From a virus (lineage: Duplodnaviria > Caudoviricetes), in the IMG/VR virus record IMGVR_UViG_3300025015_000075, positions 1 to 36,622 of that record: DNA of 36,622 nucleotides, one strand, 5' to 3'. The translations under genes were made by a program, and so were the position numbers. Every line of letters begins with the position of its first letter. The first letter of the stretch is position 1. Below are positions 5,481-31,911 of this stretch, in pieces. The notes beneath the pieces were generated by a model. The model made no database searches. It was given only the letters and a program-made list of their open reading frames with translations, and had not been told where the DNA came from.

Positions 5481-5499
5481 ATTATCCTTACATCGGGAC

Positions 5500-5527: not shown

Positions 5528-5569
5528 ACGAGTACTGGACGGTTAGTTAGCAGCAAGGGAGTAAGCACA

Positions 5570-5788
5570 GTGGAGATCAACGGAACCTACTTCAGCAACG
5601 CGGATCAGGCAGAGCTAGCCAACCTTTACCATCTGGCGCGCACTGCGCTGGCTGGACTCGACCACGTTCCCACGCGGCACGAACGTCTCATCTGGGCTTC
5701 AGACGCATTCAGTAAAGCCAATGGCGGCGCTGAAGCCGGATACCCTTCGATTCGCTGCTATAAAGCAATCACGCGCGTTCTGGCCTAG
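5570..5788 (+). CDS. Early hypothetical protein
   Basis: AAGGGAG RBS; first gene after P1. Confidence 0.75.
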   Translation: MEINGTYFSNADQAELANLYHLARTALAGLDHVPTRHERLIWASDAFSKANGGAEAGYPSIRCYKAITRVLA

Positions 5789-5833
5789 GCACGCTCAACT
5801 ACTGGACGGTTGATTAAGGCAAAGGAGTAGGGA

Positions 5834-6040
5834 ATGGCTTTTGCAACTGGTGACTATGACAGCTTCACGGAAACGCGCTTCAAGGGCTTAGGTGTCGCCA
5901 AATGGGGCAATGCTCATTGGTTCTTCGTTGACTGCATGAACAGGGAGGACGTAGCGAAGATTGGCCCGTCCTACCGAACTAAGACTGAAGCCCTAGCCGA
6001 TGCCCATCGATTCGCCGGCGAACGCGGATACCGCGCCTAG
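5834..6040 (+). CDS. Early hypothetical protein
   Basis: AAAGGAG RBS; IGPSYRTKTEALADA motif. Confidence 0.8.
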   Translation: MAFATGDYDSFTETRFKGLGVAKWGNAHWFFVDCMNREDVAKIGPSYRTKTEALADAHRFAGERGYRA

Positions 6041-6116
6041 CGCATTCTGGCTAGCTCTACTCTAGGGCTGGCATGAGCGCACTAGCTCAAGATTAAGCAG
6101 GCAAGGAGTTAAGGCA

Positions 6117-6314
6117 ATGGCTGATTTCAGCGTCAATGATCAGGGAAGCATCGTACTAATCGAGCCAGTCTCGCAGGCTGCGGTTGACTGGGTCGAGGAG
6201 TTCATCGGCCAGGACAACGGCTTCCAACCCTACTGGCCTACGGTGGTAATCGAGCACCGATACGCGGACGACGTGATCGAAGGAATGATTAGCGACGGGC
6301 TAGAGCCCGCTTAG
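6117..6314 (+). CDS. Early acidic hypothetical protein
   Basis: AAGGAG RBS; GSIVLIEP...VIEHRYADDVIEGM. Confidence 0.8.
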   Translation: MADFSVNDQGSIVLIEPVSQAAVDWVEEFIGQDNGFQPYWPTVVIEHRYADDVIEGMISDGLEPA

Positions 6315-6367
6315 CATCCCCATGAGCTGCTAAAGGTTGGCAGTCAAGCTTGAAGGGAGTAGGCACC

Positions 6368-6943
6368 ATGGTTATTGACTACGCGAGAGAGCAGGCACAG
6401 GCGCAGCTTGAAAGCATCAAGGAGATGCTAGCCAGGCTGGAACATGCGCAGGAGTGCGACGGCGACGACGTTGACACTTGTGAGCTACTGAACGAGACAG
6501 ACTGCCCGTTTGGGCAGCCCAAACTCAAGTGTCCAGAACAGGATGCCGGGTGTTACGAGGAACTGAAGGAAGCAATCGAGGCAGGCGAGACACCTTGCGA
6601 TGTATGTGGGATGCCTGCCTCATGGCATGAAAGCGAACAGGATGAGTTTGACGACTACCACGATGAGGACGCAGCCAAGCAGGCCATCAATGAGGACCCG
6701 CTAAGCGTAGAAGTACGCTCAAGCTGGCAGTCCCAGGGCGAAGAGCTGGAGCCTGCCGAGTACATGATCCTCCTCTGCACTGGCGGGCCAGCAGCCCGCA
6801 TCATCGGCGACCTGAACCAGCATGGCGGCGCAGGTAGCGCACGGCTTGAGTATCAGGACTGGGGAACGCCCTGGACTGAGTACTTCGAGGATGGCGCTGG
6901 CTCCACGCTACTTGACTACGCGAATTATTTCCTGAGGCTCTAG
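6368..6943 (+). CDS. Acidic phage protein (LCTGGPAARI...YQDWGTPW type) with Cys-rich segment
   Basis: AAGGGAG RBS before ATG 6368; very acidic. Confidence 0.8.
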   Translation: MVIDYAREQAQAQLESIKEMLARLEHAQECDGDDVDTCELLNETDCPFGQPKLKCPEQDAGCYEELKEAIEAGETPCDVCGMPASWHESEQDEFDDYHDEDAAKQAINEDPLSVEVRSSWQSQGEELEPAEYMILLCTGGPAARIIGDLNQHGGAGSARLEYQDWGTPWTEYFEDGAGSTLLDYANYFLRL

Positions 6944-7024
6944 TTCACGCCGGCTGCCTGCCTCGCAGGGATACGGGCAGCCGGAGCGCCCTAAAGCTCA
7001 CGTGATTAGCAAGGAGTAAACACA

Positions 7025-7504
7025 ATGGCAATCCTAATGCACGGCCATCACGCAGGCAGTCTGTTTACGGTTGGCCGCGAGCTCGGCGAGAGAGTAGAGC
7101 AGATTAAGCGAGAGAAGCCTGTAGCGGAACAGGCGCTAAGGCTGGCCCTCATCCAAGACGTGACGGCCCTACTGCCACAGACCAAGGCGAGGGCCGCGCA
7201 CGACGAGGCGTTGGCCGCGCTCGACAAGGCGTGGGCCGCGCTCGACAAGGCGAGGGCCGCGCTCGACAAGGCGAGGGCCGCGCTCGACAAGGCGTGGGCC
7301 GCGCTCGACAAGGCGAGGGCCGCGTACGACAAGGCGAGGACCGCGTTCGACGAGGCGTTGGCCGCGCACGACGAGGCGTGGACCGCGTACGTCGTGAGCT
7401 TCGATACCGAGGCGTTCCACCGCGAGCACTGTCACCCTAACTGCCCGTGGGACGGTAAGACGATATTCGCTAAGGGCACAAGCATCGAAGTGCTGGAAGG
7501 ATAG
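7025..7504 (+). CDS. Heptad-repeat (A-R/W/L-A-A-L-D-K) coiled-coil protein
   Basis: AAGGAG RBS; 10 tandem 7-aa units; C-terminal HREHCHPNCPWDGKTIF. Confidence 0.85.
   Translation: MAILMHGHHAGSLFTVGRELGERVEQIKREKPVAEQALRLALIQDVTALLPQTKARAAHDEALAALDKAWAALDKARAALDKARAALDKAWAALDKARAAYDKARTAFDEALAAHDEAWTAYVVSFDTEAFHREHCHPNCPWDGKTIFAKGTSIEVLEG
7187..7396 (+). repeat. 10 x 21-bp coding tandem repeat
   Basis: Consensus gcg agg gcc gcg ctc gac aag with substitutions at fixed codons. Confidence 0.95.
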
Positions 7505-7511
7505 GAATCAG

Positions 7512-7742
7512 ATGACATCGCACGTTTACCACGAGGACATACACGACACTGGCTTAGCAGATGGCTGCGCCAGATGCGAGGAGCTGGCAGATTACCCGTT
7601 CACCTTGCTCGATGACCGCATGCTTGGCGCACTCATTGACCGCTGTGAGCAAGGGCTGGATGCGCGCTCGAACAATGAGCGTCACGCCATGCTCATAGTC
7701 GAGAACGCCATGCTTCGGTTGCGTCAACTGAGCTGCGCGTAA
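7512..7742 (+). CDS. Hypothetical protein
   Basis: AGGA RBS; CxxC motif. Confidence 0.7.
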   Translation: MTSHVYHEDIHDTGLADGCARCEELADYPFTLLDDRMLGALIDRCEQGLDARSNNERHAMLIVENAMLRLRQLSCA

Positions 7743-7808
7743 ATGGAGCTCGCACTCGTAGCTATCGCCTGGTGCGTGTTCGCTTGGTTGATATTGAAAG
7801 GAAGATGA
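7743..7808 (+). CDS. Single-TM micropeptide (21 aa)
   Basis: MELALVAIAWCVFAWLILKGR fills the gap between neighbours. Confidence 0.5.
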   Translation: MELALVAIAWCVFAWLILKGR

Positions 7809-7809
7809 G

Positions 7810-8424
7810 ATGATTGCATACCACTGGCTCAAAGAGGATATGACTTCTGAGTATGGCAGCGGGAAGCCATGGAAGATAGGTGACAAACGCACTATTCGCG
7901 GATCAATTGAGTTATGTCGGCGCGGGTATCACTCTTCACCCACGCCATTCGATGGGTTGGAATATGCGCCCGGTCCTGTGCTGTGCTTGGTAGAAGTGAG
8001 CCGGCCTGTTGAAAGTGACACCACCAAACAGGTCAGCCACACGCGCAAGCTCCTCGCCTACGTCAACGTCAGGCGTGAGTTGCGCCAGTTTGTTATCGAT
8101 TGCGTAACACGAGCGCTTATGAAAGAGCGCGAAGCAGAACGCGAACCAAGCCCCCGATCATTTGCCGCCGTGCAAGCAGCACAAGACTACCTCAATGAAC
8201 TTATCAGCACAGAAGAGTTAGGGATGGCGAGGAGCGCGACGAGTGCGGTGTGGGTGACGAGGGTGACGAGGGCGGCGTGGGCGGCGTGGGCGGCGAGTGC
8301 GACGGAGGCGACGAGTGCGGTGTGGGCGGCGAGTGCAGCGTGGGCGGCGGAGGAGAATAAGTGGCAATCCGTACACTTCAACGAACTCGTCACCTGCAAG
8401 CTAAATGAGGTAACACGTGTCTGA
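7810..8424 (+). CDS. Phage protein with N-terminal C..GYH domain and Ala/Trp (AAWAA) low-complexity repeats
   Basis: IELCRRGYHSS...YAPGPVLCLVEV followed by 9-bp-based repeats ~8230-8350. Confidence 0.8.
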   Translation: MIAYHWLKEDMTSEYGSGKPWKIGDKRTIRGSIELCRRGYHSSPTPFDGLEYAPGPVLCLVEVSRPVESDTTKQVSHTRKLLAYVNVRRELRQFVIDCVTRALMKEREAEREPSPRSFAAVQAAQDYLNELISTEELGMARSATSAVWVTRVTRAAWAAWAASATEATSAVWAASAAWAAEENKWQSVHFNELVTCKLNEVTRV

Positions 8425-8497
8425 TCCTCTACTCATCTGCATTTTCGTCGTCGTAGTCACGGCCTTTGCCCTGTACTGGGGAATACCGTGGGACTAA
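8417..8497 (+). CDS. Single-TM micropeptide (26 aa)
   Basis: GAGG RBS; MSDPLLICIFVVVVTAFALYWGIPWD. Confidence 0.5.
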   Translation: MSDPLLICIFVVVVTAFALYWGIPWD

Positions 8498-8520
8498 GAA
8501 TACTCTAATGGCTTTTACTG

Positions 8521-8760
8521 ATGGTCAATCTTGGATTGTTATTGGGGGATACCATGGGAATGATTCGCGAACTCGACTGGACTCTCTGGATGCCAGCGTG
8601 TAACGGTGGTGAAGTCAAGCCATATTTTCTACGCCGCTGGCATCCTACGGCAGACTGCTATGCCAGGGATAAAGCGGGTAAACTCCGTCGTTTCAAGACC
8701 TATGCCAGTGCGAAGCGAGCAGCAGACAAGGAGAATCATGGAGCCACTAGAGCCGGCTAG
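8521..8760 (+). CDS. Hypothetical basic protein (start uncertain)
   Basis: C-terminal GKLRRFKTYASAKRAADKEN looks protein-like. Confidence 0.55.
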   Translation: MVNLGLLLGDTMGMIRELDWTLWMPACNGGEVKPYFLRRWHPTADCYARDKAGKLRRFKTYASAKRAADKENHGATRAG

Positions 8761-8859
8761 ACCAGAGCCTTCGATCAGCCGCCTTATATCTGAGCGGCTT
8801 GGCTAAGGCATGGGGCCATCACGTCGTCTATGTAACCAGGGAGGGAAAGGTGATAGACC

Positions 8860-9069
8860 TTGGAACCCGCTAGTTGGACCACACCGCCTGAGCCCGTTGA
8901 CCTGACAGATGTGGACCTGCCTCGCCACTGTGAGTGTGGTGCCTTCCTCCCTTACTCAAACAAGTGGGAAGTCGAGGAAGATGATGAACTCATAGCGTCT
9001 GTTCAGTGTCGTAAATGTGGGGCAGCCGTATCCCGTGTGTTGACTACAAGGAGCAACAGCAGGTTTTAA
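8860..9069 (+). CDS. Zn-ribbon protein
   Basis: CECG...CRKCG; AAGGTG RBS. Confidence 0.7.
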   Translation: MEPASWTTPPEPVDLTDVDLPRHCECGAFLPYSNKWEVEEDDELIASVQCRKCGAAVSRVLTTRSNSRF

Positions 9070-9123
9070 CTGTGAAAGTGGGTTGCCCTAGCCATATGCG
9101 GGAATATGCGGTAACATGCGGGT

Positions 9124-9486
9124 ATGTTCTGCTACTACTGCGGGCTACCTGCCGACAGCATCGATCATGTGGTTCCCCAGTCCATTCTGGAAGCAGCAGT
9201 CATGGCCGGTGACATGGAGTCTTACCTCGGCCTGATTGGTTGGGGACGTACGCTCATTGTCAAGTCATGCCGCCAATGCAACTCACTACTAGGCGCTTCG
9301 CTTCAGCACACACTGGCCGAGCGCAAGGCAGAGTTAAAAGCCAGGCTCAAGCGCAAGTTGGCACGAGACTTGAATATGCCGGACTGGACTGAGGTTGAGT
9401 TAGAAGAACTTGGCCCACGTCTACGACAAGTAGTAACAGATGGGTTGGAGCGCAAGCACCAAGCCCAAGCGAGGTTGAGATGGTAA
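9124..9486 (+). CDS. HNH endonuclease
   Basis: CYYCG...DHVVP...CRQCNSLLG. Confidence 0.85.
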   Translation: MFCYYCGLPADSIDHVVPQSILEAAVMAGDMESYLGLIGWGRTLIVKSCRQCNSLLGASLQHTLAERKAELKARLKRKLARDLNMPDWTEVELEELGPRLRQVVTDGLERKHQAQARLRW

Positions 9487-9632
9487 AGACCATGAACCAA
9501 AAGCGGTGGCGACGCAACACAGTCGAAGTCAAGTGCGCCTACTGCGGCAGTCCATTCATGCAGCAGACCCCATGGCAGAGGTTCTGCTGTGACTCGCATA
9601 AGACGATGGCCCTTCGTGAGAAGAAGTCGTGA
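9480..9632 (+). CDS. Small Zn-finger protein (50 aa)
   Basis: Manual translation ...VKCAYCGSPFMQQTPWQRFCCDSHK...; GAGG RBS. Confidence 0.65.
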   Translation: MVKTMNQKRWRRNTVEVKCAYCGSPFMQQTPWQRFCCDSHKTMALREKKS

Positions 9633-9830
9633 GTGATGGCACGTATCGAGGGCCTCCCGCACTGGACGAACACGAGAGAGGGACATAAGCCTTCGAAGAC
9701 CCGGTTTGGGCCGAGTCACGAGGTCAAGGCCGGCGCACACGCACACGGCAAGAAGCTGCGTAATCGGCAGCAGAGAAGGAGAGAACGCAGATGGCTCAAG
9801 CCACAGATCTACACGTCCGTTGGTGTGTGA
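9633..9830 (+). CDS. Small basic hypothetical protein
   Basis: Arg/Lys-rich ORF in operon. Confidence 0.55.
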   Translation: MMARIEGLPHWTNTREGHKPSKTRFGPSHEVKAGAHAHGKKLRNRQQRRRERRWLKPQIYTSVGV

Positions 9831-9940
9831 AGTGCAAGGACGACCGGGTTCATCGGGTCTACATGGAAGGCGACGAGAACGTGGTGACAGTCAAGACTGT
9901 GTGCCTGGCCTGTGGTTGGGATGAAGAGAGAGTGTGTTAA
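9827..9940 (+). CDS. Small Zn-ribbon-like protein (37 aa)
   Basis: GTGA coupling; MKCKDDRVH...VCLACGWDEERVC. Confidence 0.5.
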   Translation: MKCKDDRVHRVYMEGDENVVTVKTVCLACGWDEERVC

Positions 9941-9965
9941 GCTAGGCCTGGCTTCGCCCTCGACA

Positions 9966-9997
9966 GCAGCGCCGCCTCACAAGGGCGGCGTCTTGCT
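9966..9997. terminator. GC-rich hairpin between convergent transcription units
   Basis: cgccgcct-cacaa-gggcggcg. Confidence 0.5.
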
Positions 9998-10092
9998 ATC
10001 CAAGTACAGTCTTTAGTCCTTCGTACACGAGATAACCAAGCAACCGAGCATCTTATATCCCTATAGGGAGAAAAGAAGAGGACTTTGCATGG

Positions 10093-11181
10093 TTAGCTTT
10101 CAAGTCGTGTCTTGAGGTCTTCGACCCATTCATCCTGATAACTTGTCTTCTCACAGGCCAGGAGCAAGAGGACTGGTGTAGGGTAAATCCAATTGCGCCC
10201 ACCAGACCTCGCCATCTTGAGTCCCAGAGTCCTGATGTCAGACGCTACTTGCCAAGCATTAATGTCTGGGTAGCCATTACGCCGTAGATATTCACTCACG
10301 TCTGTGCTTACATTGAGACGGTGCCAGCCAAGCGTCCTATCCCAGGGTTCTTGGTCAGCTAGCAGTTCAATTACTCGCCCCAAGATAACTGCCTTCCGGT
10401 CGTAAGCAGCAGCTTCGAGCAGTCCCTCTTGGTGAAATGCGATCTGCGCCTCGGCCCATGCAATCCATTCGTTGTCACCTAAACTCTTGGCAACATGTAG
10501 CACTGGCCACCATGTTGACTCGATACGTCCGTTAACCGACAGCTCGGTGCTGACAGAGATAGAGGTAGCAAGCGCCGCGATCTCATTGCAATTAGCAAGG
10601 AAAGGCGGATAAGGGGGAGATCGATGTGTCGTTGTAATCGTGAGAAATCGCGAAACAATAGCTGGATCAATTAACTCATTGCGTGAGTGAACTACAGTAG
10701 CGCCAAAAACATTGACTTCTGTACGCTCGAATGGTCCATTGGTAAACTTCTGCTGCTTGAGTGCAATGGTGCTAAGAGCCCGTTCAGTTCGGCTATGAAA
10801 GAACGTATAAGCCGATGATGGATCGTTGAGTTGGTCAAATTCCTCACAGAATGCCGTCTTCTCATACGCATCTCCCAACTTGTCGCGTGTCTCGGGCGTA
10901 CTTAACCGGATACAAGAGAAGGAGACGGCGGAAGATTCATCCATCGCCTTAAGGGCATCGATGATAGTGGACTTTCCTGAACCTGAAGGACCAACAATAG
11001 CCAGTCCTGGGAAAGTTTGCATCTGCTTGATGTTGATGCTAGCTATTCGCCAATAGATAGCCTTCTTAGCCTGATTAACGTCGAGTTTGGCTGATGCACA
11101 TAAGCCTTCAATGATTGCAGACACCGATGTCAATGGAGTTGTAATCATTTTGCTCTCTCTTCCTCGCGGCATGACGCACAT
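10093..11181 (-). CDS. P-loop/AAA+ ATPase with probable C-terminal winged helix (replication helicase-like)
   Basis: Walker A GPSGSGKST, Walker B AFCEEFD, Arg-finger-like IVSRF; real start possibly the ATG at 11148. Confidence 0.75.
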   Translation of the reverse strand: MCVMPRGRESKMITTPLTSVSAIIEGLCASAKLDVNQAKKAIYWRIASINIKQMQTFPGLAIVGPSGSGKSTIIDALKAMDESSAVSFSCIRLSTPETRDKLGDAYEKTAFCEEFDQLNDPSSAYTFFHSRTERALSTIALKQQKFTNGPFERTEVNVFGATVVHSRNELIDPAIVSRFLTITTTHRSPPYPPFLANCNEIAALATSISVSTELSVNGRIESTWWPVLHVAKSLGDNEWIAWAEAQIAFHQEGLLEAAAYDRKAVILGRVIELLADQEPWDRTLGWHRLNVSTDVSEYLRRNGYPDINAWQVASDIRTLGLKMARSGGRNWIYPTPVLLLLACEKTSYQDEWVEDLKTRLES

Positions 11182-11663
11182 TGTCCATAGGCAATAAACA
11201 GTGGGCCAATCACAACAGCGGATGGATAAACTCCATCGGCATCATAAGAGCCACAGAGATCACAGGTAGAGTCTTCGTGTTTGGAAAGCGGCTTTGGCAT
11301 CGTGCAGCCACAATGAAGGAAGTCCTCCCAAAGTGCTATGGCTACAGGTCGAGGCCCTGCATCTTTGGTAAGATGCTTGCAATGCGGGATGCTGCCACTC
11401 AGAAGCCCGGCCAGCACCCAATCAATTTTCTTCTGCAACCGTGGGCCTGCCTCATGATAGGCTTTCTCGTAATCAGGGTTATTGTTTGACCAAGTGAGAA
11501 TACGCTGTTCTAAATCACTGCCAGCAGCCTGTACTTGATCCTGCACATGTAACGGGAGCGTATCCCTCATTGCCTTGGCTAACCTAGATCGCTGATCATC
11601 ACTAAGTTGGCTGATGTTACGAGCCATCTCTTGTCGTGTTCTTCGGTTCAAAAGGAAAACCAC
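11145..11663 (-). CDS. Cys-rich Zn-binding hypothetical protein
   Basis: CKH...CGC...CDLC...CASC; coupled to the ATPase. Confidence 0.7.
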   Translation of the reverse strand: MVFLLNRRTRQEMARNISQLSDDQRSRLAKAMRDTLPLHVQDQVQAAGSDLEQRILTWSNNNPDYEKAYHEAGPRLQKKIDWVLAGLLSGSIPHCKHLTKDAGPRPVAIALWEDFLHCGCTMPKPLSKHEDSTCDLCGSYDADGVYPSAVVIGPLFIAYGQCASCREEERAK

Positions 11664-11759
11664 CTATCCATCAGTCATCCAAGACTGAGCGCTTCCACAC
11701 ACCCAGCGAGGACGACCAGTGGAAGGTGGCCAGTTCCTGTCTCTGATTATACGCCCTCC

Positions 11760-12005
11760 TCAGGCGGGCGCAATTTCCTTTATCAGTGCTTCCTCGTACC
11801 GCTTCATCAGCTTCAGGCTCCACATACGCTTACCCAGCTCCAGGTCGGAGAGGTACGGCTGGGTGTAGCCCATGCGCACGGCCAGTTGAAGCAGCGTGAG
11901 TCCGCGCTGCCTGCGTGCGTTGCGCATGTGCGCGCCCACCTTCTTCGAGTCCGGCAGCTGGCCTGTGCCCTGGCAGTGAGGGCACTCACGAATTAACTGG
12001 GCCAA
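11760..12005 (-). CDS. XRE/Cro-C1 HTH regulator with N-terminal CxxCxGxG knuckle
   Basis: MRNARRQRGLTLLQLAVRMGYTQPYLSDLELGKR; CPHCQGTG; divergent from P2. Confidence 0.88.
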   Translation of the reverse strand: MAQLIRECPHCQGTGQLPDSKKVGAHMRNARRQRGLTLLQLAVRMGYTQPYLSDLELGKRMWSLKLMKRYEEALIKEIAPA

Positions 12006-12020
12006 AGGTGTTTCTCCCTC

Positions 12021-12048
12021 TTGACACTAGAGCTAACATGGTTATACT
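12021..12048 (+). promoter_or_regulatory. Sigma70-type promoter P2
   Basis: TTGACA-16 nt-TATACT; 23/29 identical to the P1 region. Confidence 0.8.
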
Positions 12049-12082
12049 CGCAGGAGTTGAATCTGTCAAGGAGGGGTGAAGT

Positions 12083-12397
12083 GTGAAGGCGAAGCGGTGG
12101 CGGTACGAAAAACTGGCCCTCGGTGGATGGGTGGTGAGCGATAACCGAGCAGGCGATGCATTTATCTGCGACTCAGAGGCAGCAGCCGCACGTGCCGTTG
12201 TCATCCTCAATACACTCGAGGCTGAGGCTGCTAGGTGGAGGGAGTTAGCTGAAGGATTACAGCACGCTCTTCGAGTAGCTGGTCATGAGCCAGTGAGGTG
12301 GAACGGGGATAAGAAGCTACCAGCACAGCACGGGATGTTCTGTGCGACCTGCCGTATGCTGGCCGACTACAACCAGGCCATGAGGGGTGAAGGGTGA
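12083..12397 (+). CDS. Hypothetical protein
   Basis: AAGGAGG RBS. Confidence 0.75.
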   Translation: MKAKRWRYEKLALGGWVVSDNRAGDAFICDSEAAAARAVVILNTLEAEAARWRELAEGLQHALRVAGHEPVRWNGDKKLPAQHGMFCATCRMLADYNQAMRGEG

Positions 12398-12966
12398 GCG
12401 AGACATGGGTTAAGCGCGGTGCTCAGGGACAACACGACGAAGAAGGTTGGATTATCGAGATTGGTGGTGGGTTAAGACTTCGCACCCCTTCCCTCTACGA
12501 CGTAGCGCATGCAATGGGAAAGTCACATCACGATACCGAAGTATGGCAGCGGTACAACGCCCTACCTAACGAGATGGTTGCAATGCAGGCCGACCTAAAG
12601 CAGGCGCGCGACCGCAGCGAGGAGCTAAAGCTAGCGTTGGATAAAGCTCGTGAGGTACTTGCTGTCCGAGCTCACGATGGTACGGACATGAATGCCGTGG
12701 CGCTGTACAACAAGCGGCTTGCAGACGAGGCAGGGGCCCGCATCGAGGCGCTGGAGCACGACCGAGACGGTTACAAGCAGGCGCTAGATGACGCTCACCG
12801 TAGTTACAAGGCCACCATCGAGGCGCTGGAGCAGGAGAACGAGCGGCTTGCGGCGGCGCTGGACATGACGCTATCGAACGCCGTATCGGTCTCACGCAAG
12901 GAAGAAGTCGCTCGCGCTGCCCTCGCTGACTACCGCGCCCACCAGGGCAAGGAGGAGAAGGGATGA
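12394..12966 (+). CDS. Coiled-coil hypothetical protein
   Basis: GTGA coupling; repeated IEALE segments. Confidence 0.75.
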   Translation: MSETWVKRGAQGQHDEEGWIIEIGGGLRLRTPSLYDVAHAMGKSHHDTEVWQRYNALPNEMVAMQADLKQARDRSEELKLALDKAREVLAVRAHDGTDMNAVALYNKRLADEAGARIEALEHDRDGYKQALDDAHRSYKATIEALEQENERLAAALDMTLSNAVSVSRKEEVARAALADYRAHQGKEEKG

Positions 12967-13187
12967 ACCTGATAACTGACGTGCTTCGTTGTGTCTCCTG
13001 CGATGTGCGCCCCATCGATGGAACCTGCCCATTCTGTGGTAAGGCAATGTGTAATGGCTGCGGACGATTTCATCACTGCCTCAACGAGGCGGACCGGTGC
13101 CCCGACTGCGGCGGTGCTGGCGGAATCGATGAGCCGTGCGACGTCTGTGGTAGGATAGCAGCCTGCCCGCCAGGAGCCAGCCGGTGA
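12963..13187 (+). CDS. Cys-rich multi-Zn-finger protein
   Basis: Multiple CxxC; ATGA coupling; AAGGAGG RBS. Confidence 0.7.
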   Translation: MNLITDVLRCVSCDVRPIDGTCPFCGKAMCNGCGRFHHCLNEADRCPDCGGAGGIDEPCDVCGRIAACPPGASR

Positions 13188-13331
13188 GTAACACGCGAAT
13201 AACAAAGCGCGATTAAGCCAGCCCTATGACGAGGGATGGCGTTCGATTCTTGCTCGCTTGGATATGCTTTGGCGCTACGAGCATGGGCATGATTTGCAGT
13301 GGGCAGGTGTTGGCGCAATGAGGAAACGGCC

Positions 13332-13547
13332 ATGAGTGAGCCAGCACCTGTCTACTACACAAACGACCTGATGCGCCGGCTCGTGCGCTTCCTTGCAGCT
13401 CAGCACTACGGGCGCATATACATCAAGCATCCCCGCCTGCACAACGTCCACACCTACCACATAGAAGGCCAGGATTGTGAAGCGTGTAAGCTCTGGCGTG
13501 AACTCAAGGCGTACGTGGAGTTAACCTCTGCGCCACAAGAACGTTAA
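13332..13547 (+). CDS. Hypothetical protein
   Basis: GAGGA RBS before ATG 13332; H...CxxC. Confidence 0.6.
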   Translation: MSEPAPVYYTNDLMRRLVRFLAAQHYGRIYIKHPRLHNVHTYHIEGQDCEACKLWRELKAYVELTSAPQER

Positions 13548-13658
13548 TACCTATGTGAAGGAGGTGATGACTCACGCCAAGACCGAGCGAGATGTCACAG
13601 CCAGGGGCTCACCGAGCTGGCTAATCTTAACGAGTGAGCATAGATGAAAGGACGCCAC

Positions 13659-14276
13659 ATGAAGAAAGCAATCCTCTTTACCGCAGTCGTGCTGCTCGCC
13701 GGCACCGTGTTCAATGGCACGGCCATCGCTGGCGGACCAGGTTCCCTCACCATCGTAGTTGAGACTTCGCCCCGTGACCGGGATGTGCGCTTCCACTACG
13801 ACACCAGCGAATCCCTCGGAGCCAGCTCAGTACCAGGCTTCACCCTCACGGACGATGACCGGCGTGATGCGCGGCGTAAGTTCGAAGAGCTGAGCGGCGG
13901 GCGCTACCGCATTACCCAGGACACCCCTTCAGGTTGGAACCTGGATGACGTAAACTGTGACGGTGACAAAGACACCGACATCGACATCGACGGCGAGCGC
14001 TTGACTATCACCCTGGATGGTGCAGAGAACATCACCTGCACGTTCTACAACACGAAGGATGAACCAACCCCGACTCCCACTGTGGTCCCTGTTAGCACTC
14101 CAGTGCCTCCTGCTCCTACTCGTGAGCCTACTGTTCCTTGTGTCATTGGCTCTGAGGTCGTTGTTCTAGTGGGGCTGCGCTGCCCACAGCCCACACCCAC
14201 GGCAACGGCGACGCCAGTTGTGCAGGTGGCCCAGATACGCCCTCCAGCCACAGGTGACGCGGGACTACTCCCATAG
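13659..14276 (+). CDS. Secreted prealbumin/SpaA-like Ig-fold protein with PT-rich linker and PPATG tail
   Basis: Signal peptide MKKAILFTAVVLLAG; GRYRITQDTPSGWNLDDVNC...ITCTFYN; PTPT linker; ends IRPPATGDAGLLP. Confidence 0.8.
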   Translation: MKKAILFTAVVLLAGTVFNGTAIAGGPGSLTIVVETSPRDRDVRFHYDTSESLGASSVPGFTLTDDDRRDARRKFEELSGGRYRITQDTPSGWNLDDVNCDGDKDTDIDIDGERLTITLDGAENITCTFYNTKDEPTPTPTVVPVSTPVPPAPTREPTVPCVIGSEVVVLVGLRCPQPTPTATATPVVQVAQIRPPATGDAGLLP

Positions 14277-14287
14277 AAAGGGTTGGA

Positions 14288-14581
14288 ATGTACACCGAAC
14301 GAATGGATCAAACGACCGGACGAATGGATCAAACGACCGGCGCTCCTGATCGCGTAGGCATGGAGGGCATAGTCTCTTATGCCGACCAGGTAGATGCGGC
14401 TGCACACGACGTAGAATCAGCCTGGGATTACTTCCAGAATGGCAGTAATGGGCGGTCATCATCCAGTGACTCCACGTCACCGCCACGCTCCAACGACAAA
14501 CTGGAGGCTACGCAGTCCACCTTACGGGAAGCTGTTAACCTACTGGCGAGAATTGCCCAGGACATTCGCAGTCGCGCATAG
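14288..14581 (+). CDS. Hypothetical protein with 21-bp tandem duplication (14299-14340)
   Basis: RMDQTTG x2; AAAGGG RBS. Confidence 0.65.
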   Translation: MYTERMDQTTGRMDQTTGAPDRVGMEGIVSYADQVDAAAHDVESAWDYFQNGSNGRSSSSDSTSPPRSNDKLEATQSTLREAVNLLARIAQDIRSRA

Positions 14582-14610
14582 GTGACACGGGGCTTCTGCC
14601 GTAGTACACT
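14582..14610 (+). promoter_or_regulatory. Sigma70-type promoter for candidate sRNA
   Basis: GTGACA-17 nt-TACACT. Confidence 0.65.
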
Positions 14611-14616
14611 AAACTC

Positions 14617-14695
14617 GGCGCAGGCGTGATTGCTGAGACCTGCACTACCTCCTTGCTGCCCCCGGTGGAGTCCCTTCTGCCGGGGGTAAACTTTT
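14617..14695 (+). ncRNA. Candidate ~80-nt small regulatory RNA with anti-Shine-Dalgarno linker
   Basis: Own promoter, 5' hairpin (GCAGG/CCUGC), single-stranded ACUACCUCCUUGCU, 13-bp terminator stem plus U tract; no plausible ORF. Confidence 0.6.
14658..14695 (+). terminator. Intrinsic terminator
   Basis: gcccccggtggag-tccc-ttctgccgggggt-aaactttt. Confidence 0.75.
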
Positions 14696-14729
14696 GTCTA
14701 AATGGGTAGATTTACACAGGTTTATCCCC

Positions 14730-14759
14730 TTGACTGTGCGCTGTACCAGAGTCCATACT
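14730..14759 (+). promoter_or_regulatory. Putative promoter of the recombination operon
   Basis: TTGACT-18 nt-CATACT with ctgtac repeats (14741, 14765). Confidence 0.5.
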
Positions 14760-14793
14760 CCACCCTGTACTACACGGAAGGAGGAGGTGCCTA

Positions 14794-14949
14794 TTGGCCA
14801 AGATTAAAGTGCCACGGCTCAAGTGTCAGCAGTGCGGCCATGACTGGACGCCACGCAATAGTGACGTGCGCCAGTGTCCTGGCTGCCATAGCGTATGGTG
14901 GGACAGGCCCAAGGAAGTAAAGGAGAATGCCCATGAACACAACGATTGA
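14794..14949 (+). CDS. Small Zn-ribbon DNA-binding protein (51 aa)
   Basis: GGAGGAGGTG RBS, TTG start; LKCQQCGHDWTPR...CPGCHSVWWDRPK; missed by ORF track. Confidence 0.8.
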   Translation: MAKIKVPRLKCQQCGHDWTPRNSDVRQCPGCHSVWWDRPKEVKENAHEHND

Positions 14950-15199
14950 AACTCCAAAAGTCATGAAGGAGCGCACCTTTAGCAGGAAAACACTCCAGTG
15001 GTTAGCAGAAGAGCGGCCACACCTTTACTCAGCCATTACCGAAGCCTACGCTGAGTGGAAGCGCAACGGCCCCAGAGCCAACTTCTTCCGTTCCTACAGC
15101 GCCGAGCAGTTGGCCAAGGCTGAAGCCATTGCACTCAGGAACCTTGCTGATGTGCAGGCTCGACTTGCTCGAATCGCTGCCGCTAAGGAAGGCAAGTAG
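14933..15199 (+). CDS. Hypothetical protein
   Basis: AAGGAG RBS; start 14927 or 14933. Confidence 0.7.
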   Translation: MNTTIETPKVMKERTFSRKTLQWLAEERPHLYSAITEAYAEWKRNGPRANFFRSYSAEQLAKAEAIALRNLADVQARLARIAAAKEGK

Positions 15200-15202
15200 A
15201 CC

Positions 15203-15838
15203 ATGAACGACCTGCTCGAAGAGCTCAACTCACTAACCCCTGAAGTCCTCGACCAGAACGAGCTACGTGCTGGTAGGCGTAAGGCCCCCTGGGTCAAGGT
15301 CTACAACGAGTTCGAAGCCGACACCACGTTCAGTGAAGGCGTCGGCAGGGATGGCAAACGCCTGCTTGTGCTCAAGTGGACGAACATGCGCATCCTCGAC
15401 AGCGATACCCCCTGGACTGGGACAGAGGACGAGGACGAGTTCCCCTTCAGCGACCGCGCCAACTCCAAGATGGGCTTCTTGATTAAGAGCGCTGCTACCC
15501 ACGGTGCCAGCCCAGTAACCAAGCTCAATGAACATCGCGTCCATTACAAGCTGGGTCTGTGGCAGCAAAAGAACGCGGACGGAACAGTACGACTCAATGA
15601 CAAGGGCTTCCCTGCCTACGAGTTATGGTACTGGGAGGTTATCGGCGTTGGTGCTGGCAACGTGAACGGTGCCAAGCCCGCGCTTAGTAACGAGGACTTC
15701 GAGGCCAAGCTACCACTCGTGGTGGGACAGACCCACGCCAGCGCTATCCAACTCGCCGGTGCCGAGGTCGTGAGCAAAGGGCTGCTCTCCAAGCGCATCT
15801 CCCAGGTTGACGGCGTGTACCAACTGGTGAGTGCGTAA
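15203..15838 (+). CDS. Putative ssDNA-binding/OB-fold protein
   Basis: Beta-rich, aromatic; position ahead of exonuclease/Sak4. Function is contextual inference. Confidence 0.45.
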   Translation: MNDLLEELNSLTPEVLDQNELRAGRRKAPWVKVYNEFEADTTFSEGVGRDGKRLLVLKWTNMRILDSDTPWTGTEDEDEFPFSDRANSKMGFLIKSAATHGASPVTKLNEHRVHYKLGLWQQKNADGTVRLNDKGFPAYELWYWEVIGVGAGNVNGAKPALSNEDFEAKLPLVVGQTHASAIQLAGAEVVSKGLLSKRISQVDGVYQLVSA

Positions 15839-16042
15839 CTCACCCCCGCTCCGCTGGCCGCCACGCAAGTTACGGCCAGGGGGGTAGGCAAGGTCGCGGT
15901 TGTGGCTGAATCGTAAGTCAGTCAACCCTACCAAGGAGTTCATTCGGTCGGGCTTTGTCACCATAAATGGGGGGTTAAAGGGCTTACTGTATACCTCGGT
16001 GGGGTACAGCCAGCCTCCCTCCACTTAGCAAAGGATGCATTA

Positions 16043-16834
16043 ATGATCGTAGAGCCATCACCTCATCTCCATGCTGAAATAATCCAGCTACTCAAGGATG
16101 AGCACCAGTTGACTGCTCAGCGTACAGGGATGCACGTGAGCGACCTCACTCACTGCCTCACGAAGTCATACTGGAACCGCGTTGACCCTGCGCCACCCAG
16201 TGACGACGAGGTCCTCTACTGGAGCATCGGCTGGGCAATGGAGCGTGTGCTTATCTCGCGTCTGCACATGGAGCCAATCATCCTGGACGGCATCACGGGT
16301 ACGCCAGACTTCAGCATCGATGGGCTACCTGCTGACCTGAAGACTACACGTATGCCACCTGAGTCTAGCGGTGGATGCCTCGTGTGTGGCGAGCCCTACG
16401 CCGGGCACACAAAGGGTAAGAACGGCCACGCCTATGAGAAGTCGCCGCCTGTGCCCTTCAAGTTGCCAGAGACATGGGTGAGGCAGTTCAAGGCGTATCG
16501 CTACATGCTGAACCGGACGGTCAAGACAGTCAGCTACGAATGGGTGCCGGCAGCGCTATTTGGTACTGAGCGAAAGCCATTGAACCAAAACACCTTTGCC
16601 GTCGTCATCATCCACCTTGTCCAGCCAGCGGTCCAAGTACTCACCCTGCACTTTACAGAGGGCGAGCTTGAATCCCACTGGGCCTGGATGGTAGACCGGA
16701 GCAACGCACTGGAGTCCATGTTGTCGCAGCATGACCCGATGGAGTACATGTGGAATGAGCCCTGGGAGTGCACCAACTGCGCCTACAGCCTGCGCTGTGG
16801 GTTGGCAGCTAGCTTGCAAGGAGTGAGTAAGTGA
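16043..16834 (+). CDS. Cas4-like PD-(D/E)XK exonuclease
   Basis: HVSDLTHC, GTPD, DLKTT, QFKAY, C-terminal CxxCxxxxxC (WECTNCAYSLRC). Confidence 0.85.
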   Translation: MIVEPSPHLHAEIIQLLKDEHQLTAQRTGMHVSDLTHCLTKSYWNRVDPAPPSDDEVLYWSIGWAMERVLISRLHMEPIILDGITGTPDFSIDGLPADLKTTRMPPESSGGCLVCGEPYAGHTKGKNGHAYEKSPPVPFKLPETWVRQFKAYRYMLNRTVKTVSYEWVPAALFGTERKPLNQNTFAVVIIHLVQPAVQVLTLHFTEGELESHWAWMVDRSNALESMLSQHDPMEYMWNEPWECTNCAYSLRCGLAASLQGVSK

Positions 16835-16914
16835 GTTGGCCTGAAGCTCTCGTATACATTGTCTGCATTGCGGCCGGTGCTGCCGTTGTTATTGCATTCA
16901 TGAGGAGTGAGTAA
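16831..16914 (+). CDS. Single-TM micropeptide (27 aa)
   Basis: MSWPEALVYIVCIAAGAAVVIAFMRSE; AAGGAG RBS; flanked by 18-bp direct repeats. Confidence 0.6.
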   Translation: MSWPEALVYIVCIAAGAAVVIAFMRSE

Positions 16915-17718
16915 ATGAGTCGGTTCTTCCTCGTGTTCGGTGAAAACGGTAGTGGTAAGACAACTTTTGCCCTGACCGGCGACAAGCCGATCAATTACTA
17001 CGAGTGGGACAGCGGCTCATGGGAGCGTGCTGCTACCTCGATGAACCTGGGTGAGGGCGACGTCCAGGTACGCCAGTATTACGCACCACTGACCAGTCTG
17101 CTTGACCCGGGACGTGTCTCTGTAGGCGACAGAGGTGGCATCGCGCCTGCTACCGCACACGTACTTGAAGGCTGGAACGACCTATTCTGGGGATTCGTCA
17201 AGGACTACCTGGGCGACCTCAAGGGCGCAGGCTACCCGGTGATTGATACGAGCACGAAGCTCTGGCTCGCTGTACGCCAGGCATTCCTTGAACAAGTACA
17301 ACAGGCTGCCGGCCCTGAGCGTGAGAGGCTCAATGCTCTCCAGTACACGGAGCCGAATGCCCGCATGAGCCAGATAGTCGAAGCTGCCAAGGCGCGAGGG
17401 AAAGACCTAGTGATGCTGGCCCATGAGGGCGAGGTCTACCTCAACGACAAACCCACGGGCATACTCAAACCAGACGGCTTCAAGGAACTGCCCAACATGG
17501 CGGACTGCACGCTGCGGTTCAGCCTGCGCAACAAGAAGCCCCTCGCTGTCATCTACAAGGCAGGCACTGGTGGGCTTGAGCTCGTAGGCCGGGAGATAGA
17601 AGAGCCGACGTTGCCCAACGTGAACGCCCTGCTCGATGCAGCGATTAAGCTGAGACGCGCGGGTATGCCCCTGCCAGGTTCGAATGATGATCTGTTGGCA
17701 CTGGCGGCTGCACTCTAA
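16915..17718 (+). CDS. Sak4-like (AAA_24) ATPase/ssDNA-annealing protein
   Basis: GENGSGKT at the N-terminus, VIDT Walker B, LVMLAHE, MADC motif. Confidence 0.8.
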   Translation: MSRFFLVFGENGSGKTTFALTGDKPINYYEWDSGSWERAATSMNLGEGDVQVRQYYAPLTSLLDPGRVSVGDRGGIAPATAHVLEGWNDLFWGFVKDYLGDLKGAGYPVIDTSTKLWLAVRQAFLEQVQQAAGPERERLNALQYTEPNARMSQIVEAAKARGKDLVMLAHEGEVYLNDKPTGILKPDGFKELPNMADCTLRFSLRNKKPLAVIYKAGTGGLELVGREIEEPTLPNVNALLDAAIKLRRAGMPLPGSNDDLLALAAAL

Positions 17719-17812
17719 TGAGCAGCCACCTTGAACAACACCACCGTTGCACTTCTGAGTCATTAACATGGGTAGAAGATTCTTCTAACCCAGCACAGCC
17801 ATTGATGCTGCA

Positions 17813-18571
17813 ATGATCTATCTCGATACCCACGAGTCCATTGAGCTAGAGCTACTGCTCTCTCAATGCGCGCCGGTGGAGCGCGCCTTACTCAACCCTG
17901 AACGTGGTGACGTGTGGTGGATAGATGCACAGGGCAGGCAGGTCAGCTTCGAGCTCAAACAGAATGGCGAGCTGCTTGGCTCCCTTGAGTCCGTCGAGGA
18001 GCAGTTGGCCCGTGAGATGCAGAACGTGGACTACCTGGGCCTTGGCATTCGTGGCATCATCACGCCCACAGTGAGCGGCTACTGCCAGACCTGGAAGGTG
18101 GCAGACGGCAACCCCAACATCATCCGCAAGGCGCAAGAGTATCGCCATTCATACAAGGGGCTCAGGGCATGGCTGGCGCGACTTCAGGAGTTAGGCATTG
18201 TGGTCATTGAGACGCCAGATGTCCACTCCATGGCCATCGCCCTTATTGCCCAGTATGAGAACTCGCTCAAGGCCGAGCAGGACCACCACACCTTCAAGCG
18301 CCTCATCACTACGAAGGCGTGGATCGCCGAGCTGGACACAGACAAGGCGCGCTTTACTAAGCAGCTCATGGCCATCGTGCCCGGCTGCGGTGAAGACATA
18401 GGTCTCGCGCTAGCTGACGTGTTCCCAGACCTCGCCACACTGCTCAATATCGTGGAGAGTGGCGCTGAGGATAAGGTGGCAGGCGTGCCCTTAAGGTTGA
18501 AGGAAGGGGTGCGCGGACGTACAGTGGGGCCGGCGTTTGTAAAGTCACTGAAGCGCGAGGTTGGACTATGA
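17813..18571 (+). CDS. ERCC4-family nuclease (probable resolvase) with HhH
   Basis: IYLDTHE, GDVW, FELKQ..ELLGS, HhH-like VPGCGEDIG and TVGP. Confidence 0.8.
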   Translation: MIYLDTHESIELELLLSQCAPVERALLNPERGDVWWIDAQGRQVSFELKQNGELLGSLESVEEQLAREMQNVDYLGLGIRGIITPTVSGYCQTWKVADGNPNIIRKAQEYRHSYKGLRAWLARLQELGIVVIETPDVHSMAIALIAQYENSLKAEQDHHTFKRLITTKAWIAELDTDKARFTKQLMAIVPGCGEDIGLALADVFPDLATLLNIVESGAEDKVAGVPLRLKEGVRGRTVGPAFVKSLKREVGL

Positions 18572-18834
18572 ACACTCGGCGTGGGTTTCTTAAAGGACTG
18601 GTTGGGCTGCCTGTGGCTTATGTTGTGGGGGCTGGTTTCACTGCCGAGCAGCCACCTACCCTACACAAAATAGGCAAGATAGCTGCTCGCTTTCGAATTG
18701 ATGGGGGTGAATGGCAAGAGGTAAGCATCCCTATCATGGCCGACACGGCAGGACACCACACTGCAGACCTTGACTACATCTATGTGGAGATCACTCCAGA
18801 CTTGAACTTGCGCTCAATGGGATTCAAGCCATGA
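18568..18834 (+). CDS. Small protein with twin-arginine-like N-terminus
   Basis: MNTRRGFLKGLVGLPVAYVVG. Confidence 0.7.
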   Translation: MNTRRGFLKGLVGLPVAYVVGAGFTAEQPPTLHKIGKIAARFRIDGGEWQEVSIPIMADTAGHHTADLDYIYVEITPDLNLRSMGFKP

Positions 18835-19115
18835 ACACTGCCACTCAAGAGTTGGTCGTCAACAAGGCAGGCCAAGAGCGCATACGCAGGACAGCAGTAT
18901 GCTCGACTCACGACCAGCGCAGCCACCAGTTCGTAGGCCCTGTCGCGCTCGGCTGGATGTTCGAATGTAGCGAGAACAGTGTCCACATGCGTCACTACTT
19001 CGTTGTTCACCCACCCAAGGACGCGCCCAGGACCGAGGCTGATATCGTCTTGTGGCTGGAGAGCAAACGCCAAGCTCGCATTAATAGTAAGGAAGTGAGG
19101 AAGCGCGGTGCCTGA
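18831..19115 (+). CDS. Hypothetical protein
   Basis: ATGA coupling. Confidence 0.7.
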   Translation: MNTATQELVVNKAGQERIRRTAVCSTHDQRSHQFVGPVALGWMFECSENSVHMRHYFVVHPPKDAPRTEADIVLWLESKRQARINSKEVRKRGA

Positions 19116-19284
19116 AATAGTAACTGATTGGTGTACGGTCTGTGCATATCCTAAGCCTACAAGCTGCGTAGTCTTCAATGACGAGCACGTTTGTATCGCC
19201 TGCATCCAGGATGCATGTGAGCTACTCGGCATCTCCCTTTCTGTGCCAGACGAGCCAGAAGAAGCCGAACTCGTAGAAGCATGA
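19108..19284 (+). CDS. C4 Zn-finger protein (58 aa)
   Basis: Manual translation ...WCTVC...HVCIACIQDACELL; GAGGA RBS. Confidence 0.65.
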   Translation: MPEIVTDWCTVCAYPKPTSCVVFNDEHVCIACIQDACELLGISLSVPDEPEEAELVEA

Positions 19285-19520
19285 GCTGCGCCCATCATGT
19301 TGCCACTCAGATGATTCAGCGCAGGCTTTCCATATGGCAACCCGCTTCATGGACCCAGGACGGAAAGTTCGTCAAGTACATAGGTCAACCAGTCCGGAAG
19401 TGGCAATATCTAAACTCTTGTGAACACTGGGTTTGGGAAGATGCCAATCACTGTGGTGAATGTGGCAGTATTTGTGATGTCCAAGGCGGGCCACCTCATT
19501 TGAGAGGAAAGAATAATTGA
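19281..19520 (+). CDS. Hypothetical protein
   Basis: ATGA coupling; CEHW...CGECG. Confidence 0.6.
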   Translation: MSCAHHVATQMIQRRLSIWQPASWTQDGKFVKYIGQPVRKWQYLNSCEHWVWEDANHCGECGSICDVQGGPPHLRGKNN

Positions 19521-19717
19521 CCACTCATATGAACTGCGCCCATCATTGGGTACTCGCCACACCCGCTGGCCCCATGGTTCATGGCGTCTGTGTGCTCTGT
19601 GGAGCTGAGCGCGATTACCCTACGACCATGGACAGCGACGACTGGAAGGATGTGCGTAACAAGGGCCGTGCTGCCGCGAAGTTGGCAAGAGAGCGCAAGC
19701 AATTCGAGTTGGGCTAG
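19517..19717 (+). CDS. Small Zn-ribbon protein (CAHHW...GVCxxCG)
   Basis: Start 19517 or 19529. Confidence 0.75.
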   Translation: MTTHMNCAHHWVLATPAGPMVHGVCVLCGAERDYPTTMDSDDWKDVRNKGRAAAKLARERKQFELG

Positions 19718-19722
19718 AGCGC

Positions 19723-19761
19723 CTGGAACCCAGGTTCCAGACCTCCTGGATGTGATATAGT
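19723..19761 (+). promoter_or_regulatory. Extended -10 promoter with upstream palindrome
   Basis: TGaTATAGT 19753-19761; ctggaacc-ca-ggttccag 19723-19740. Confidence 0.6.
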
Positions 19762-19837
19762 CAGCAAGTCGAGGGTGGCTCGACGGAACGGAAGGGGCTG
19801 CCAAGCGGTGGCCTCTTCGCTTATAGAAAGGGACAGA

Positions 19838-20284
19838 GTGAACACAAGCAGAATATCGAGATCGCAACGGTTCACAGTGCTCTTCAGGGACAAGTTCACC
19901 TGCCAGTATTGTGGACGTAAGGCACCAGATGTCATATTGCAGATTGACCACAAGGTCCCGCATCTCCTCGGAGGCGCAGATAGACTGGAGAACCTAGTCA
20001 CCGCCTGTGAGGACTGCAATCAAGGCAAGGGCACACTGGAGATAATCGCGGACCCGCCGCCGGCTTATGTTACGCCGGTAAGTCTGACACCTGAGCAACT
20101 AGAGCGCCTTGAAGCTGTACCCAGCAGCACTGTTTCAACTGAAGAAGTCATGCGCCTGCGCACTGTAAGTGGGTCATGGACTCGCAAGACACTGGAATCA
20201 TGGGACGTGCCATGGCCACCGCCGCGAGGATGGAAGGCCAAGCTTACTGGTGAGATGGACCCGCCAAGCGAAGCTGTGCCATAG
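19838..20284 (+). CDS. HNH endonuclease fused to small C-terminal WT..L..W.VPWPPP.GW domain
   Basis: RFTVLFRDKFTCQYCG...IDHKVP..GG...NLVTACEDCNQGK; AAAGGGA RBS before GTG 19838. Confidence 0.9.
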   Translation: MNTSRISRSQRFTVLFRDKFTCQYCGRKAPDVILQIDHKVPHLLGGADRLENLVTACEDCNQGKGTLEIIADPPPAYVTPVSLTPEQLERLEAVPSSTVSTEEVMRLRTVSGSWTRKTLESWDVPWPPPRGWKAKLTGEMDPPSEAVP

Positions 20285-31712: not shown

Positions 31713-31911
31713 TGACTACCTCCTCTGCTACGGGTAGCGCAGGCACGAATTCCCAGCCATTATCGGTGACGACAAGTTGGTCGATAGTGACTTCGCCTGC
31801 CTTGAGAGCCTTGAAGTCCTCGATGGCCTTCTTCTGCCCTGTTTCCAGCGTATCGATGGTGTTAAGAGCAGTGGCGTAATTCTGCAAGAGCATCTGATTG
31901 ACGATAGCCAT
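31684..31911 (-). CDS. Small coiled-coil protein, possible tail-fibre chaperone
   Basis: Directly after the fibre gene (TAATG coupling). Confidence 0.6.
   Translation of the reverse strand: MAIVNQMLLQNYATALNTIDTLETGQKKAIEDFKALKAGEVTIDQLVVTDNGWEFVPALPVAEEVVSGHNGKRAS

Follow-up and report, generated by a model that had tools for sequence, protein, structure and literature searches.

A conserved promoter-to-terminator unit in a groundwater phage and its putative role as antisense reader of a ribosome-binding-site tag

The locus and the predicted RNA

The window, by which is meant the whole stretch of 36,622 nt analysed here, is one contig of a phage from groundwater metagenomes, a longer record of which holds ~7 kb extra. 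A search of its 50 proteins against PHROGs and Pfam revealed a terminase (1675-2991, minus strand), an amidase, a tail fibre and Sak4-like and Cas4-like proteins, and no antirepressor family; five ORFs of the longer record gave no PHROG family. The structural genes are located on the minus strand, and small genes on the plus strand are found downstream of two strong promoters at 5500 and 12021 (both 11/12 consensus). No integrase family appeared among the scanned proteins of the phage, and the lysogeny role that an earlier note on this DNA had offered for the unit described below is therefore unsupported. Host look-up via Atlas and NCBIfam gave no usable taxon.

Several other features were noticed in these regions. 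The 16-nt spacers of the strong promoters (5500-5527 and 12021-12048) both contain TA.AGCTA..A.GGT, a possible operator, and an XRE-type HTH gene (11760-11927, minus strand) is divergent from the promoter at 12021. The plus strand early region is broken up by an AAA-domain gene and its partner (10093-11663, minus strand), and the early ORFs 7025 and 7810 carry tandem coding repeats of 21 nt and 9 nt (7183-7387 and 8217-8358). At 13659-14276 a secreted-looking protein of prealbumin fold (SpaA_4) is encoded, which has a tract rich in Pro/Thr, ends in an RPPATG motif near the C-terminus and is present in the second phage (G001, below) too; it brings to mind surface proteins of Chloroflexota.

The unit under study is situated directly upstream of a Zn-ribbon gene and is made up of the following features:

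14582..14610, plus strand: sigma70-like promoter GTGACA-17-TACACT, 9/12 consensus
14617..14698, plus strand: predicted small RNA of ~80 nt, proposed from promoter, terminator and fold, its start inferred from the -10 box
14617..14647, plus strand: 5' segment with a weak hairpin, unconserved and replaced in G001
14648..14656, plus strand: exposed seed CCUCCUUGC, the sole sequence in common with the unit of G001
14657..14698, plus strand: intrinsic terminator with a 14-pair stem and a short U tail, found by terminator scan
14730..14759, plus strand: next promoter, TTGACT-18-CATACT, before the Zn-ribbon ORF 14794-14949, arranged alike in G001

The promoter named in the earlier note is present at 14582-14610, begins directly after the stop of ORF 14288-14581 and holds a short inverted repeat (ACGG..CCGT) in its spacer; promoter-like sites of such quality number 13 in positions 1-20000 compared to 10.2 +/- 2.7 in shuffles, which alone is not significant. 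The strong terminator was likewise confirmed, as a 14-pair stem at 14657-14688 followed by AACTTTTG, and it would also stop an operon running from promoter 12021. Less is left of the 5' hairpin, which can be folded but is weak (z -0.41 for 14617-14665), unpaired in the centroid and not kept in G001, the z of -2.49 for the 91-nt fold being due to the terminator. The linker ACTACCTCCTTGCTGC is indeed found at 14644-14659, but it is not exposed over its full length since UGC (14657-14659) is paired into the terminator stem, leaving 14644-14656 as the exposed part; opening the seed CCUCCUUGC costs 0.44 kcal/mol. Against Rfam, nothing in the window reached the gathering score, and relaxing the cut-off to E 10 brought up a single weak and irrelevant hit.

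A reading in cis or as coding sequence, with the motif serving as ribosome-binding site (RBS) of a minus-strand mini-gene or a read-through RNA sequestering the RBS of the downstream Zn-ribbon gene, would draw on a 36-codon minus-strand frame that follows the inverted motif and on AAGGAGGAGG at 14778. This frame starts only 3 nt past the motif, however, and has no counterpart in G001, and the Zn-ribbon RBS lacks, in both phages, the GC of the tag treated below and is ~315 nt from the motif in G001. Such a reading appears extremely improbable.

The counterpart in a second phage

Searches with the neighbouring proteins revealed one other phage, G001 (L037/L038, 43 kb), with 65-74% nucleotide identity in core genes. 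The two genes upstream of the unit are in swapped order compared to the window, and a different 358-aa gene is located where the window has the minus-strand AAA-domain gene (10093-11663). The gap before the Zn-ribbon gene of G001 contains TAGACA-17-TAATAT followed by CCTCCTTGC, a terminator and the next promoter. The first of these promoters is a 9/12 match to the consensus, as in the window, and includes a 7-bp inverted repeat, the promoter spacer being palindromic in both phages. The terminator, unlisted by the terminator scan tool, was found by a custom script together with a fold. Within the syntenic gap blastn detected no similarity between the window and G001, and an automatic two-sequence alignment of the units was discarded with the seeds out of register. 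The 9-mer in G001 forms the loop of a GCAGU/ACUGC hairpin (z -4.7) with an opening cost of 1.59 kcal/mol.

These observations bear on the explanation that there is no regulatory RNA: the locus would simply terminate the middle operon, its motif would be incidental, and GCAAGGAG would be an RBS habit of the lineage. It would account for single promoter matches at chance level, for a 5' part that is unstructured and unconserved, for the restriction to two genomes and for the five out of nine GCAAGGAG tags that overlap the end of an upstream ORF. It does not account for an exact 9-mer, exposed in both folds, in an otherwise unalignable gap (the chance of CCUCCUUGC in a given 110-nt gap is ~5e-4), nor for the promoter-like site that G001 has in the corresponding position or the lack of the tag among the late genes of both phages, and we find it unlikely. 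As a sequence pattern, a promoter and an intrinsic terminator flank a non-coding stretch in both phages. The unit at 14582-14698 is a real, conserved element.

When 18 genomes were scanned without reference to the motif, 9 non-coding promoter-to-terminator units appeared, and the two with the seed are the syntenic pair of the window and G001. The unit is carried by these two independent genomes only, 16 more distant capsid-related phages being without a homologous unit, and structural covariation is therefore not countable. A scan of the 16 phages for repeated tags of their own gave nothing clear. Close relatives sought with protein queries were limited to the same phage and G001, together with a contig of 1.8 kb that does not contain the region, and from soil runs with small shares only short pieces were recovered.

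Pattern searches were also performed and their candidates rejected. The exact linker occurs in 31 stretches of viral contigs, homologous only in L010 (the same phage). The loose pattern GCGCAG..CCTCCTTGC, estimated at ~2700 stretches, was uninformative, none of its loci being similar to the window by tblastx, and a seed-plus-hairpin pattern gave 33 stretches, of which two are the window's phage and G001 and most others reverse-strand RBSs or coding. An unrelated phage fragment of 48% GC (L181:3934-4045) combines TATACT, a hairpin, CCTCCTTGC and a terminator, with no other GCAAGGAG in 15.9 kb.

In run X6 a second strain, ~90% identical nearby, leaves the window sequence after 14469 and rejoins it at 14640-14648, the start of the seed. 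Its 5' segment appears to be replaced up to the seed, which is a weak hint; long identical stretches follow downstream, and X6 is a possible source of the window. Over 13790-15688 this run contains two strains in one sample, ~90% identical in patches and identical elsewhere.

Another promoter-RNA-terminator unit, unrelated to the present one, was noticed just upstream of a Zn-ribbon gene in G011 (C1:36130-36224, minus strand; L255). It contains UAUGCGUCCCC, part of which is predicted to be paired and which is the complement of GGGGACGCAUG, found at two sites in G011 and at single sites in G009, G010 and G014.

The tag before early and middle genes and its predicted pairing

In the window GCAAGGAG is present on the plus strand at 6101, 7009, 12947 and 16816, in each case ending 7-8 nt before a start codon, and once on the minus strand, as the linker itself. 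These five copies compare to 1.73 +/- 1.43 in shuffles, a modest excess as 5/100 shuffles reach five. The 8/8 matches at the four plus-strand positions and CAAGGAGG at 12067 had been reported in the earlier note and all were recovered, as was the 13/14 pairing at 5550, which consists of 12 Watson-Crick pairs and one G.U (-19.8 kcal/mol). The sites are:

5550..5563, plus strand: predicted target site GCAGCAAGGGAGTA, upstream of ORF 5570, which comes first behind promoter 5500
6101..6108, plus strand: tag GCAAGGAG, before ORF 6117
7009..7016, plus strand: tag GCAAGGAG, before ORF 7025, with the best net energy when accessibility is included
12067..12074, plus strand: partial tag CAAGGAGG, before ORF 12083
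12947..12955, plus strand: tag GCAAGGAGG, before ORF 12963, 9/9 complementary to the seed
16816..16823, plus strand: tag GCAAGGAG, before a 27-codon hydrophobic ORF (16831-16914)
31715..31731, minus strand: late-gene site GTAGCAGAGGAGGTAGT, before ORF 31712, inside the coding end of the upstream ORF

As regards the inverted repeats (ESAS) that are linked to the start-associated sequences discussed below, a general repeat search gave only a loose 21-nt family at 5705, 6101 and 7009. Around the 27-codon ORF, GGAGTGAGTAA(G/A)TGAGT is duplicated (16816-16834 and 16900-16919), which gives it the look of a small inserted gene.

To compare gene classes, hand-curated start regions were used, with early and late classes assigned by strand and position; the minus-strand genes at 10093-11927 of the window were left unclassified and outside the early/late counts, the G001 counts leave out five automatic calls (34, 6558, 7510, 41931 and 42255), and two misplaced G001 hand starts are part of the raw-duplex comparison and left out of the tag counts. 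GCAAGG was found in 5/33 early/middle and 0/33 late start regions of the window, the latter in agreement with the earlier note, and in 7/30 versus 1/32 of those in G001 (p 0.024), a genome not used to form the idea. Pooling both phages gives 12/63 versus 1/65 (p 0.00095). Among AAGG sites alone the proportions are 12/36 and 1/23 (p 0.0099), an early enrichment beyond generic anti-Shine-Dalgarno pairing. The lack of this enrichment, or a homologue that kept only the terminator, had been named beforehand as evidence against a regulatory RNA; neither was found where the sequences allow a test, and G001 keeps the seed and the promoter-like site as well.

As an outside control, 20 of 27 capsid-related loci were taken as whole records, the 7 on short contigs being left out. 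Dropping the two carriers' records, among them G020 from the same phage as the window, and two duplicates, G016 (of G015) and G019 (of G012), gave the 16 relatives, which share little with the carriers beyond capsid-region genes. In these relatives, all without the unit, GC precedes AAGG in 19/316 sites, a rate against which G001 (7/29, p 0.0014) stands out and the window (4/28) gives p 0.085. GC before AAGGAG followed by an ORF occurs in 9/32 cases in the two carriers compared to 12/229 in the relatives (p 2e-4). Because hosts may differ among the 16 relatives, more weight is given to the within-genome late control.

The window and G001 carry the tag on different genes, with no homology between the two sets. 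Those of G001 include an exoribonuclease-like gene and a Sak4-like gene, and the Sak4-like gene of the window is untagged. By sequence the tag is restricted to non-structural starts; it is also short and marks only 5/33 (window) and 7/30 (G001) of the early/middle genes, which limits the reading. Two further minus-strand copies in G001 are located inside coding sequence.

A one-sided motif of this kind could also be a protein site, for a CsrA/Rsm-type RNA-binding repressor or as an asymmetric DNA operator, with the inverted copy as a DNA site or a minus-strand decoy. The consensus of CsrA/Rsm proteins is CANGGA. In the G001 unit, AAGGAG could be displayed in a loop of the minus strand, and the start-associated sequences of mycobacteriophages, discussed below, have been proposed as RNA or protein sites in the accessible text of PMC3203893. 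The promoter and U-tailed terminator, however, indicate the plus strand in each of the phages, the promoter scan giving none on the opposite strand there; moreover, the unit holds a single motif and no CsrA/Rsm-type family is present among the scanned proteins. A protein site is accordingly given very little weight by us.

Pairing was then considered over entire start regions, a genome-wide duplex scan without accessibility having been set aside as dominated by long G.U-rich pairings. The longest exact antisense words of the G001 RNA genome-wide are three 11-mers, all at plus-strand starts (4957, 5496 and 38127) of early/middle genes, and with CCTCCTT fixed and the flanks randomised this gives p 0.0003. 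In the window the same fixed-core test found three sites with 9-nt matches (p 0.035) and none with 10 nt, no early start having an exact match of at least 10 nt. When corrected for accessibility, the top four sites in G001 are all tagged genes and the top ten are all on the plus strand (p 0.0004); in the window the top five are 7025, 16831, 19108, 5570 and 6117, four of them tagged genes, and the difference in net energy between early and late sites has p 0.06.

CCUCCUU is the ordinary anti-Shine-Dalgarno core, and it could be argued that the RNA is real but acts as a generic decoy against host messages or all strong sites, the phage tags being a by-product. Untagged strong sites do pair as well (40435, 1278 and 2649 in G001; 19108 and 31712 in the window), and early sites have stronger Shine-Dalgarno cores anyway (core-only p 0.0003 in G001), to which part of their pairing advantage is due. 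What the decoy leaves unexplained is the conservation of the non-generic GC, whose complement shows enrichment only at early/middle starts and only in the two carriers, and it is regarded as improbable.

The matches given in the earlier note are all at RBSs of early and middle genes, and it missed the strongest raw duplex among the 66 start regions of the window, which is at the late gene 31712 (minus strand; -25.0 kcal/mol, 10-nt exact match). Not all late genes would escape the predicted RNA, the exceptions being 31712 in the window and 20710 in G001. The product of 31712 is a 178-aa protein, well conserved in G001, with no Pfam family above cut-off. Covering a Shine-Dalgarno sequence normally blocks initiation, which argues against a variant of the proposal where pairing takes place but tagged messages are opened or stabilised, or where 31712 is the main target. 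The energy and match length of 31712 favour this variant, and stabilisation through binding at an RBS is considered possible in the accessible text of PMC10470900. The 31712 site is, however, costly to open and ranks seventh after accessibility, it encodes the end of the upstream protein, and in G001 the 16 best sites do not include that of the orthologue, so that a different outcome of the pairing has a very low probability in our view.

Covariation between seed flanks and targets in the two genomes is only suggestive and not significant (cognate 17 versus cross 6 of 24, permutation p 0.058, post hoc), the 3' flank alone giving p 0.11-0.14. By raw energy the RNA of the other phage pairs better at 5/12 tagged sites. 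In each phage there is one tag whose core is the weaker GGGAG, and it is at this tag that the match to the phage's own RNA extends farthest upstream (3 and 5 bases).

A proposed trans-acting RNA and its relation to known systems

Taken together, the seed, promoter-like site and terminator in place in G001, and the tag on its non-homologous early/middle genes, argue for the trans-acting anti-RBS RNA proposed in the earlier note, and we consider it on balance probable that such an RNA covers tagged RBSs of the phage's own early/middle genes. The predicted ~80-nt RNA would most likely be made by the host polymerase from its own host-type promoter, the palindromic spacer of which could bind a regulator, or alternatively be the 3' end of the middle operon starting at 12021. 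Through its exposed seed, CCUCCUUGC, the RNA would base-pair in trans with the subset of early/middle RBSs that carry the GCAAGG(A/G)G tag, selectivity being supplied by two bases (GC) past the usual anti-Shine-Dalgarno sequence, and late-message sites would mostly pair through the generic core only. The seed would thereby cover the Shine-Dalgarno sequence of tagged messages, block initiation and lower these genes as a group. From the position of the gene we infer that the RNA would probably accumulate in the middle phase and damp early proteins, releasing ribosomes to late messages in an early-to-late hand-over.

That initiation would be blocked is likely by analogy to B11 and c4. In the accessible text of PMC12197685 the c4 antisense RNA of P1/P7 is a trans-acting 77-nt RNA that blocks translation through pairing of looped sequences near the RBS. 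The RNA predicted here is of similar size and its pairing would likewise be at or near the RBS, but c4 targets one message (ant, antirepressor) whereas several unrelated, dispersed genes are predicted here, the unit has no Rfam match and the window no antirepressor family. B11/6C of mycobacteria exposes a C-rich sequence through which it represses many mRNAs by pairing at their RBSs (PMC10470900, accessible part). A like arrangement is predicted here, but B11/6C is host-encoded with two C-rich loops, while the unit, again without an Rfam match, is phage-encoded with one seed and predicted targets among the phage's own genes. The RegB endoribonuclease of T4 shuts off early messages via a GGAG-based extended motif at Shine-Dalgarno sites (PMC3014915, accessible part). 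The predicted outcome is the same, early messages being turned off through an extended Shine-Dalgarno motif, but RegB is a protein nuclease needing S1 and recognition here would be by RNA base pairing. One RNA reading a gene class by its RBS tag would be the RNA counterpart of RegB, and a simple way of timing gene expression in a mosaic early region.

Among the phage RNAs treated in the accessible text of PMC12197685, c4, sar and OOP act on one phage message each and VpdS and PreS on mixed host and phage targets. A literature search, with most subscription papers outside its coverage, found no paper on a phage RNA silencing its own gene class via an RBS tag. The unit is probably a form of base-pairing sRNA control and not a member of c4, 6C or the start-associated sequences (SAS) proper.

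SAS are described in cluster K mycobacteriophages (PMC3203893, PMC11373665, PMC12699233) and cluster EF Microbacterium phages (PMC7302621), and in the accessible text of the 2024 and 2025 papers (PMC11373665, PMC12699233) their role is given as unknown; one inverted SAS is reported in four K1 phages (PMC3203893, accessible part). SAS resemble the tag in being an extended RBS sequence a few bases before non-structural starts (3-9 bp in SAS, 7-8 nt in the window), with copies that share one orientation apart from a single inverted one lacking a start; the window has four tags on the plus strand and one inverted on the minus strand. They differ in having a 13-bp consensus, GGGATAGGAGCCC, in 11-19 copies, the tag here being a different one of 6-9 nt in 5-7 copies, and there is no homology.

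In Adephagia the inverted SAS, between genes 92 and 93, was found to be a hairpin loop (z -5.3) behind a TAGACT -10 box, and the box is present in 15/16 aligned cluster K sequences (GAGACT in Nergal). The loop of the third hairpin in subcluster K1, CCUCCUAUCC, matches the SAS core exactly in antisense, and K3 and others are without this loop. Of the 16 aligned cluster K sequences, 6 have a loop that is the exact SAS complement and 2 have one that is C/U-rich; the other 8 have none, among them Pixie, with 18 SAS in the stretch that was read. Two-sided changes affect 2/19 stem pairs in the 8 loop-bearing sequences. As far as the sequences go, the parallel between the unit and the K1 SAS hairpin is real but not universal.

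A more general proposal, which we put forward only tentatively and think rather less likely than otherwise, is a phage programme of tagging and silencing, where a private Shine-Dalgarno extension marks a gene class and one antisense RNA reads it, the unit of the window being a minimal form and the inverted SAS loop of K1 the same device. If this were true, a newly acquired gene would join the regulon by gaining two or three bases, and the SAS question, open since 2011, would gain a direct test in a cultured phage. The phage of the window is uncultured and beyond in vivo tests, but its leaders can be tested in reporters, and through the Adephagia parallel the idea can be tested in culture and bears on the unexplained SAS. 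The Adephagia hairpin region matches 197 phage records, and the stretch L276:30560-30800 (Adephagia JF704105, ~58.56-58.8 kb) is an unannotated candidate for a conserved structured RNA in cluster K mycobacteriophages.
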